A stretch of DNA of 64,000 nucleotides from Patescibacteria group bacterium (GTDB lineage Bacteria > Patescibacteriota > Patescibacteriia > 2-02-FULL-49-11). The notes beneath the pieces were generated by a model. That model ran no database searches, had not been told where the DNA came from, and worked only from the letters and a program-made list of their open reading frames with translations. Each line of letters starts with the position of its first letter. Positions within the stretch are counted from its first letter, which is position 1. The DNA is taken from assembly GCA_041645165.1 (NCBI GenBank), contig JBAZQN010000006.1, positions 4,933-68,932 of the forward strand. The letters are read 5' to 3'. The translations under genes were made by a program, and so were the position numbers. This document shows, piece after piece, positions 31,712 through 31,808 of this stretch.

Positions 31712-31808
31712 CCTAAATTCTAAACTCTAAATCCTAAATTGTTTAGTACCTCACTTTGAATTTAGCCATTTGGATTTGTTTAGGATTTGGGATTTAGTGT
31801 TTAGAGTT
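31712..31808. repeat. family E low-complexity palindromic spacer
   Basis: aaatcctaaattctaaactctaaatcctaaattg…ggatttgtttaggatttgggatttagtgtttagagttta. Confidence 0.6.

Follow-up and report, generated by a model that had tools for sequence, protein, structure and literature searches.

The gene spacers of a 64,000-nt stretch from a Patescibacteria group bacterium (contig JBAZQN010000006.1; this whole stretch is hereafter the window) carry copies of a small non-coding repeat, here named family E, which consists of two inverted arrays of 7-nt units. One such copy, the focal element at 31712-31808, lies within the 109-nt spacer between the minus-strand genes for ribosomal proteins L18 (31811-32218) and S5 (31183-31701). 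The weight of evidence favors the view that whole E units appear at new sites, nest within one another and are lost faster than the neighboring genes diverge. [quoted passage not shown] The term MITE is applied to E as a functional analogy, not as demonstrated membership.

The initial annotation of the window listed 13 long intergenic palindromes, and all 13 regions do contain the inverted arrays described there. In each, an A/C-rich, nearly G-free array is followed by its T/G-rich complement, with G making up 6% of the left arms and C 9% of the right arms. Every region folds into one dominant plus-strand hairpin of 16-38 imperfect pairs, mostly A-U, rather than into the ~50-bp hairpins first proposed; the stems of E hairpins are ~70% A-U. 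Folding z-scores range from -0.5 to -7.6 against shuffles that preserve the composition of each arm. Folding is better than in shuffled controls (z ≤ -2) in 22 of 26 strand tests with mononucleotide shuffles and in 21 of 26 with dinucleotide-preserving shuffles. The focal element reaches -19.4 kcal/mol as sense RNA (z = -2.4, with 2/200 shuffles as good) and -15.3 kcal/mol as plus-strand DNA (z = -5.0, 0/200). A repeat search places its arms at 31698-31738 and 31779-31819 (41 nt, 76% complementary), with an inner pair of 26 nt that is 88% complementary. The stop codon of L18, TGA, falls inside the terminal TGTGATAAAC of this element, and the other end stops 2-12 nt short of the S5 ATG. A strict scan of the window for heptamer-periodic arms recovered 17 that are G-free and 14 that are C-free, compared with 1.9 and 0.6 expected from a second-order Markov model; nearly all of them lie within gene spacers.

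The repeat unit was initially read as 8-9 nt, a length corrected here to 7 nt. Across the 13 regions, identity at lag 7 is 0.55 versus 0.32 in shuffles (z = 17.4), and the best autocorrelation lag is 7 or 14 in 12 of them. A full copy runs from a degenerate A/C/T heptamer array through a subfamily-specific center of 20-45 nt to a complementary T/G/A heptamer array. The ends, TGAAATCC…GGATTTCA, are conserved and usually bordered by TA; in many copies one of the two is degenerate. When the 7-nt blocks of one arm are permuted, folding weakens slightly (mean z -1.3, negative in 13/13; -0.8 for the focal element). As a result, the arms are best described not as strict palindromes but as arrays of mutually complementary units, inverted relative to each other and slippery in register; the mirroring of the left arm by the right, as originally described, holds between unit types but not position by position. 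At ~90-135 nt and without coding capacity, E elements stay within the ~300-500 bp limit of MITEs, and the inverted heptamer arrays inside conserved ends correspond to the terminal inverted repeats of such elements. In E1 arms, a TAA or TAG recurs each 7 nt and closes all three frames on both strands.

Self-comparison of the window resolves three subfamilies of E, namely E1 (AAATCCT), E2 (CCCAATGACCAAT) and E3 (AATTTTCAA). Full-length pairs in unrelated spacers are 79-86% identical by self-BLAST. These include 22832-22950/33002-33121 (80% over 121 nt) and 31708-31788/40079-40166 (80%), as well as the core common to 9505-9660 and 31030-31140, which had already been noticed and is now measured at 86% over 87 nt (9491-9577/31025-31111). 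The three E3 copies have sharp common boundaries in three different contexts; one is nested in another E element and one carries a GC-rich insert. The asymmetric E2 subfamily is present in both orientations relative to transcription. The string TATGAAATYC occurs exactly four times in the window, each time at an E end, where we estimate ~0.25 exact matches by chance. The window holds at least 14 E copies in 64 kb, and the same subfamilies are found in other spacers of three relatives (loci L002 and L082, below, among them), a dispersal like that of MITEs. Discrete copies with conserved ends in unrelated spacers, seen both in the window and in its relatives, thus bear out the earlier claim that these are copied elements and not mere composition.

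Most of the elements are located in a minus-strand ribosomal-protein cluster that runs from S12 (47626) through the S10-spc block to SecY, Adk, MAP and L21 (24338). L30 is absent from this cluster and L15 directly follows S5. An E element was said to occupy the usual position of rpmD, the L30 gene; this is so for 31030-31140, which lies in the S5-L15 spacer (30977-31182), but the focal coordinates correspond to the L18-S5 gap. For comparison, we retrieved the best 80 relatives by L2 protein among species-representative genomes. All are metagenome-assembled genomes, labeled mostly as Patescibacteria or named groups of the Candidate Phyla Radiation (CPR), with some labels generic or evidently wrong. 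The nearest of the 80 is MAG041 (locus L002; L2 87% identical). Three more loci came from a scan of metagenomes: L082 with S3 94% identical, its near-duplicate L083 with 92%, and L084 with 70%.

Element content differs between close relatives, as the presence/absence comparison proposed in the initial annotation shows. In the host lineage and its relatives, copies come, go, replace each other and nest within the short spacers of co-directional genes. In four relatives with L2 77-93% identical, the same spacer may hold E1, E2, E3, one of the neighboring repeat families A, B or C, or almost nothing. At least five of ten spacers differ in element content between the L082 contig and the window, at 86-92% coding identity. 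In a sixth (L23-L2), cut by the contig end, L082 has E3 where the window has E1; this spacer is reduced to 28 nt in L002 and 12 nt in L084. The L082 E3 copy is 87% identical to the window copy between S5 and L15. Likewise, the S8-L6 spacer filled by E2 in the window is 25 nt in L002, and the L22-S3 spacer of both L082 and L002 contains half a family-C element instead of E1, with a different L22 C-terminus. The E2 copy of the L002 L4-L23 spacer (9400-9515) is 91.4% identical over 116 nt, non-repetitive center included, to that of the window S8-L6 spacer (33003-33118), while coding segments of the two genomes are 70-84% identical, with neighboring genes at ~78%. Replacements often extend into the upstream gene and take in its final codons and stop codon: the A/C-rich E arm, in mRNA sense, encodes the C-terminus of L15 in the window and L002, and that of S5 in L084.

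Such filling of spacers is uncommon among Patescibacteria. In 115 loci where at least eight spacers from L3 to SecY could be measured, spacer length has a median of 13 nt (interquartile range 5-23), against 134 nt in the window, where 16 of 19 spacers are at least 60 nt long; the window ranks 2nd of 116 by median spacer, in agreement with the unusual density first remarked on. Its expanded spacers measure ~100-240 nt and are filled by several interacting repeat families, whereas spacers of 0-20 nt are the rule in most Patescibacteria loci. A minority of lineages (L049, L051, L060, L004, L028, L025, L050 and others) show like expansions with their own unit sequences. Single long hairpins make up 164 of the 334 expanded spacers, in 53 loci. 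Outside the host clade, the period is 7 or 14 in 38 of 62 significantly periodic hairpin spacers, and heptamer-periodic hairpin spacers with unrelated unit sequences are present in at least 20 other Patescibacteria lineages.

Some further features of these loci were recorded in the survey. In L049, L050, L060, L025, L004 and L028, most ribosomal-protein spacers hold hairpin repeats of 80-145 nt from families particular to each lineage, including five near-identical 143-nt copies built on ACAGAT-type units in L049, and an E1-like sequence (AAATCCTAAATCC…) was seen in the distant L028. Matches to the E terminal motif across all loci fall mostly near locus coordinate ~6,500-8,200 and presumably represent a single conserved site rather than E ends. 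In compact genomes, the long L4-L23 "spacers" are in reality N-terminal extensions of L23, an artefact of start-codon estimation. The window L23 (39616-40065) has such a lysine-rich extension of ~40-55 residues (MGFFDRFKRK…), also found in L008, L010, L056 and many other Patescibacteria. The S10-L3 spacer (41556-41754, ~200 nt) is highly conserved between the window and L002. It is long (~140-500 nt) in nearly all 80 Patescibacteria loci, also in those with only 0-10 nt in the remaining spacers. It matches no Rfam family; upstream of L3, it may act as a conserved leader or a structured RNA.

While the MITE-like interpretation accounts for the movement and nesting of whole units, several observations weigh against it. 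No classical transposase is encoded among the window proteins. The only candidates there for a mobilizing gene are a large serine recombinase and a small GIY-YIG protein, neither with E-type ends, and E ends that enclose an open reading frame (ORF) were found neither in the window nor in related loci. None of the relatives compared has a clean empty site for any E copy. "Empty" orthologous spacers often keep arm remnants, which makes target duplication unreadable, and adjacent gene termini differ, so that replacement by recombination fits equally. TA flanks, noted by eye at most recognizable E ends, could belong to the terminal repeat. Copy number genome-wide is viewed through 64 kb of the host genome and at most 21 kb per relative. 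In addition, the recurrence of a 7-nt period in unrelated lineages points to a common constraint or function that a purely selfish model leaves unexplained. A distinct MITE class is nevertheless the favored one of the three options in the initial annotation (the others being cruciform-forming spacers and processing signals), although a transposase and a proven target-site duplication were not found.

Some of the same evidence could be explained if the arrays arise and persist in place, by heptamer slippage and intrastrand template switching, with similarity between spacers due to ectopic gene conversion by way of the low-complexity arms rather than transposition. Much of the folding energy survives permutation of heptamer blocks, so slippage could build and maintain arms in situ. 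Solitary arms and half elements exist (48631-48690; L002 S5-L15 spacer), the arrays of the window and L082 differ by a 12-nt indel in the L2-S19 spacer, and the remnants at "empty" sites and the replacements that reach into gene 3' ends are compatible with this process. The competence gene ComEC, which is encoded in the window, would permit uptake of related DNA. However, whole units of 106-120 nt with non-repetitive centers recur with sharp boundaries between unrelated flanks, their terminal motifs are conserved, and one element is nested in the loop of another. We regard formation in place as rather unlikely and retain the MITE-like interpretation.

The hairpins could also be primarily functional intercistronic RNA modules, kept by selection for RNase III-type processing, mRNA stabilization or translational coupling. 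The 164 hairpin spacers, spread over many lineages, fill the distance from stop to start with a regular geometry: the median distance is 5 nt from the stop codon to the stem and 9 nt from the stem to the start codon, and the last 6-12 nt before the ATG are unpaired and AU-rich. The GC core hairpin of the related family C varies by compensatory pairs between copies (GUCCCGC/GCGGGAC, GCCCCGC/GCGGGGC, GUGCCGC/GCGGCAC). Furthermore, Correia and ERIC elements that fold in mRNA are cut within transcripts by RNase III and RNase E, respectively (PMC10969869). Against this stands the equal folding of both strands: the sense strand is the more stable in 85 and the antisense strand in 78 of 163 hairpin spacers (p = 0.9; 5 versus 7 in the window), which gives no indication of G-U pairs being tolerated solely on the transcribed strand. 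E1 arm sequences are conserved among seven aligned copies, and the covariation of arms that was suggested as a check is not seen, with one of 18 consensus pairs altered on both sides (covariation term +0.41; low power with seven copies). Unrelated families replace one another in the same spacer, or leave it nearly empty, in close relatives; most Patescibacteria loci manage with 0-20 nt; and E2 occurs in both orientations. The processing signal once suggested thus gains no direct support, and a primary RNA function appears unlikely. Searches of the window, L002, L082 and L084 against Rfam 15 returned tRNAs only at the gathering score, and at E-value ≤ 1 just two weak, chance look-alikes of miRNA precursors (31711-31806 and 39490-39606).

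Barely credible, in our view, is a reading of the elements as plain transcription signals, whether bidirectional intrinsic terminators or promoters, or as assembly artefacts. The A-rich then T-rich polarity around the stem is superficially like that of a bidirectional terminator, and the AT-richness like that of promoter regions. In a consensus scan against shuffles, however, promoter-like sites number 23 versus 18.3 ± 4.7 expected and terminator-like sites 17 versus 16.3 ± 4.5, with one of the 17 (33047-33068) inside an E element. The stems are AU-rich and lack the GC clamp and following U-tract of intrinsic terminators, and they stand between nearly all gene pairs of an operon that needs co-expression. 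Regarding assembly, separately assembled contigs of run SRR8449827 (L001, L163) encode identical SecY and S12 proteins beside spacers of equal length, so the spacers are not an artefact of assembly, and related elements are present in four other metagenome assemblies. Exact-protein look-ups for strain variants returned only the host strain's own short contigs, and no record for L14.

Under the MITE-like interpretation, E would move as DNA, either through an enzyme acting in trans from outside the window or through copy-and-paste recombination between spacers. Being inside operons, the elements would be transcribed together with their neighbors. The arms would then pair in the mRNA and bring the stop codon of the upstream gene and the start codon of the downstream gene together at the base of a single stem. 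A terminating ribosome may open this base and so free the region just upstream of the next start codon, and in this way translational coupling and operon expression would outlast the insertion. This would explain why self-folding elements, and little else, accumulate in the spacers. The window genes have no evident Shine-Dalgarno sequence. The AGGA of the T/G-rich arm was considered as a ribosome-binding site and rejected by eye, since its spacing from the ATG is inconsistent and E2 and E3 lack the motif; the idea that arms donate Shine-Dalgarno sequences is also countered by the opposite arm polarity of some genomes. A single match of an E end in a viral collection lies inside a coding region and is coincidental.

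The elements of family E in the window are listed in Table 1 together with a related copy of family C. The regions named in the initial annotation are generally intergenic, but 30443-30535 overlaps the 3' end of the L15 gene. Similarly, an element is indeed present at 40078-40180, but these coordinates cover only part of a larger one that carries a nested insert.

Table 1. Positions and features of family E elements, and of one family C element, in the window.
Element	Coordinates	Strand	Features
E1 (focal element), units AAATCCT / AGGATTT, whole L18-S5 spacer	31702..31810		Hairpin span 31714-31810; aligned with six other E1 copies
E1, L4-L23 spacer	40072..40240		79.5% identical to 31708-31788 and 84.5% to the E1 copy in the L24-L5 spacer of L002; A/C-rich arm broken by a nested 55-nt GC-rich insert (family D, ~40167-40221)
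E1, whole L23-L2 spacer	39482..39615
E1-type, whole L22-S3 spacer	37534..37667		Terminal TATGAAATCC
E2, units CCCAATGACCAAT / ATTGGTCATTGG, whole S8-L6 spacer	32990..33125
E3, units AATTTTCAA / TTGAAAATT, S5-L15 spacer	31028..31136		Nested in the loop of an outer E element that takes up the rest of the spacer
Short E element across the L15-SecY junction	30435..30535		Terminal motif TATGAAATCC; L15-side array (T/G-rich on + strand, A/C-rich in mRNA) encodes L15 end and stop codon (…SQFPNPNVK)
E arms at both ends of the SecY-Adk spacer	28826..29144		GC-rich inserts nested between the arms; left end orthologous in L002, which is without the inserts
E element, then second stacked unit	25292..25533		Hairpin 25410-25499; both units end CTAAGG-TATG
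E2, between two minus-strand genes	22823..22953		Outside the ribosomal operon; opposite orientation to 33002-33121
E2-like, between plus-strand genes ybaB and recR	20478..20642		Hairpin span 20507-20612
E1	18296..18411		Both ends intact (TAATGAAATTCG…GGATTTTCATTAAGG); directly upstream of the 320-nt GIY-YIG mini-element at the dnaB start codon
E3, between two ABC-transporter genes	9509..9648		Nested GC-rich hairpin insert
E1-like, spacer of NDK and NAD(P)H-hydrate dehydratase	61127..61329		Hairpin span 61172-61265; terminal TATGAAATCC at 61135
Half element	48631..48690	+	Solitary T/G-rich heptamer array, no partner arm
Family C, S12-S7 spacer	47090..47200		E-like heptamer arms around a GC-rich core hairpin; orthologous in L002

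Among known systems, E appears closest in behavior, by analogy, to palindromic MITEs of the Correia and ERIC types; it shares sequence with none of the systems considered here. Correia elements (CREE or NEMIS) of Neisseria and ERIC (IRU) elements of enterobacteria are palindromic bacterial MITEs that occupy transcribed intergenic regions (PMC10969869). Like E, they are non-coding, imperfect palindromes of ~100-200 nt that are dispersed, often within transcription units, vary between strains and nest in one another. Correia elements are flanked by TA, as are most E ends. Unlike them, E has no similarity to their sequences, its arms are degenerate heptamer arrays in a three-letter alphabet rather than unique terminal repeats, and neither a target duplication nor a partner transposase was found for it. 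E also occupies almost all spacers within a ribosomal-protein operon, in a kind of genome considered streamlined. Patescibacteria are nowhere mentioned in a 2024 review of prokaryotic MITEs (PMC10969869), and our full-text literature searches, which were partly poorly targeted, returned no account of such elements in this group.

Sequences of the repetitive extragenic palindromic (REP), BIME and REPIN types, mobilized by RAYT transposases, likewise are high-copy intergenic palindromes that are co-transcribed with genes and form ~100-nt hairpins as doublets. REPs are units of 20-40 nt with a GTAG or CGTC tag (PMC3733652). In contrast, E has neither tag and its arms are heptamer arrays, and no Y1 transposase or RAYT was found among the window proteins. 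The GC core of family C is loosely like a CGTC-tagged REP, by eye only.

Direct 7-nt tandem arrays in intergenic DNA are the hallmark that E shares with short tandemly repeated repetitive (STRR) and TAACTGA-type heptamer sequences, to which it adds an inverted partner array. The cyanobacterial STRR2 unit TTGGTCA is similar to ATTGGTC of E2, and in Nostoc STRR heptamer arrays harbor small mobile repeats nested within them. TAACTGA repeats are intergenic in Beggiatoaceae, cyanobacteria and Bacteroidetes and, like E, often end just upstream of a start codon; inverted heptamer arrays account for one case among 170 sets in a Beggiatoa-family genome (PMC4679880). TAACTGA-type arrays consist of 2-6 nearly exact direct copies without a complementary array, whereas those of E are degenerate, always pair an A/C-rich array with its complement, and move whole. 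These parallels raise the possibility that the E arrays are a binding platform in 7-nt register, for a cold-shock or S1-like OB-fold protein on RNA or a nucleoid protein on DNA, with inversion being secondary. The strong 7-nt periodicity of all 13 elements (z = 17) and its return in other lineages despite different units would suit such a platform, as would the position of direct heptamer repeats just upstream of start codons and the reported occupancy of heptamer repeats by Bacillus subtilis CspB, at one protein per heptamer (PMC4679880). This binding is purely putative, and unit sequences vary widely. Moreover, arms occur in both polarities across genomes (A/C-rich arm first in 31 spacers, T/G-rich arm first in 23) and the arrays are dispensable in most relatives, which makes a binding platform very improbable as the primary explanation.

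Further parallels to the architecture of E come from eukaryotes and organelles. The Foldback (FB) transposons of eukaryotes have long inverted arms of short tandem sub-repeats and snap back into hairpins, as E does. They are typically kilobases long, with sub-repeats of 10-31 bp and in some cases a transposase, unlike the ~100-nt bacterial E with no known autonomous partner. In Fusarium mitochondria, (A)n…(T)n "palindromic microsatellites" are AT-rich, low-complexity intergenic palindromes that are optional between close species and have been argued to be mobile (PMC7218506). The repetitive hairpin elements of sponges and the palindromic repeats of Volvox are likewise organellar palindromes that occupy the intergenic DNA of small genomes. 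The organellar repeats, like E, share their genome with GIY-YIG genes (homing endonucleases in their case), but their arms are homopolymers or GC clusters, whereas E has heptamer arms and is found in a free bacterial genome, inside polycistronic operons.

Other repeat families adjoin E in the window, some of them linked to GIY-YIG genes. A GIY-YIG protein of 93 residues (PF01541, E-value = 3e-17) is encoded by a 320-nt unit on the plus strand (18412-18731) whose insertion point is exactly the start codon of dnaB. Copies of family A (~230 nt; 10579-10815, 32177-32406, 34980-35215, 36141-36371) match the ends of this unit at both of their own ends. L082 and L083 have no family A copy between L16 and L29 or between L14 and L24, and these spacers are clean empty sites with a TATG duplication that includes the start codon. 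In the L2-S19 spacer of L002 (10820-11106), family-B ends (GCCCGCCTAA…TTAGRCGGGTatg) enclose a GIY-YIG ORF of 86 aa (PF01541, E-value = 5e-15), 45% identical to that of the window. The window itself has family B copies at 33901-34020, 34556-34673, 38063-38170 and 38494-38610, whose ends directly abut start codons. Between two of these copies, identity is 100% over 108 nt, and S19 takes its stop codon from the TAA in their 5' end. Since ends are shared with GIY-YIG-encoding units and TATG is duplicated at empty sites, families A and B look like miniatures, without an ORF, of tiny GIY-YIG elements whose insertion sites are start codons.

The GIY-YIG elements can be related to E only conjecturally. 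The left ends of elements are TATG or AATG (often so in E), and E-bearing spacers end …GGTATG at the start codon, from which sequence features an integration route common to E and families A and B is conceivable. Among the loci searched, GIY-YIG ORFs beyond the window occur in L002 and L048 only and, as such, cannot explain the hairpin spacers of other lineages. In the broadest conjecture, heptamer foldbacks would be a recurrent Patescibacteria device, in which an array in 7-nt register is read by an OB-fold protein or the terminating ribosome and gates re-initiation between cistrons; E and families A, B and C would form one integration system aimed at the stop/start junction, with autonomous members that encode ~90-residue GIY-YIG nucleases. 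We consider this scheme improbable.

Families C and D and a further repeat were noted alongside these. Additional family C copies occur at 35597-35700 and within 33546-33718. The C-terminus (…NYGVPQGGT) and stop codon of S3 come from half a copy in the window (~36809-36850) as well as in L002, and L22 of L082 ends alike; L22 of L002 also ends inside a family-C core, and S17 of L084 inside a similar one (…GVPPSGT). Family D (CACCGC..GGCGGGATCCCGC…GCGGGA) is small, GC-rich and repeatedly nested in heptamer arms of E and C, at 40167-40221, ~33655-33710 and ~9578-9625 and in the L15-SecY spacer of L002. A GC-rich repeat of ~150 nt that starts CGTATCGGAATTTCAA… is nested in family B or E ends of relatives (S10-L3, L5-S14 and L15-SecY in L002; L15-SecY in L084), with a fragment in the window at ~43500 (EF-G/EF-Tu spacer); it looks structured and has no Rfam match.

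Elsewhere in the window, the large serine recombinase gene (57292-58887) is associated with perfect 149-nt inverted repeats at 57027-57175 and 58661-58809, between which it was placed. The right-hand repeat adjoins a tRNA-Pro(GGG) gene (58804-58877), and the segment 57027-58809 may be invertible or an integrated element. A cluster of four tRNA genes at 48973-49303 includes a tRNA-Pro with anticodon AGG, which is unusual for bacteria.

Small size and streamlining are usually attributed to CPR (Patescibacteria) genomes, and few bacterial loci are as compact and conserved as ribosomal-protein operons. In the host lineage, the content of the spacers turns over faster than the neighboring genes gain substitutions. 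If these findings on the spacers are borne out, fragmented assemblies at such loci would be explained, including the host-strain short-read contigs of only 2-3.4 kb, and caution would be advised against treating the synteny and spacing of ribosomal-protein blocks as invariant. The operon would also represent a natural test of how far long structured inserts are tolerated inside translationally coupled genes, and the 7-nt period, common to the heptamer repeats of cyanobacteria, Beggiatoaceae and Bacteroidetes, would be open to direct test. More broadly, genome dynamics in the CPR would owe much to small non-coding elements, mobile or self-propagating, whose major contribution has been overlooked.

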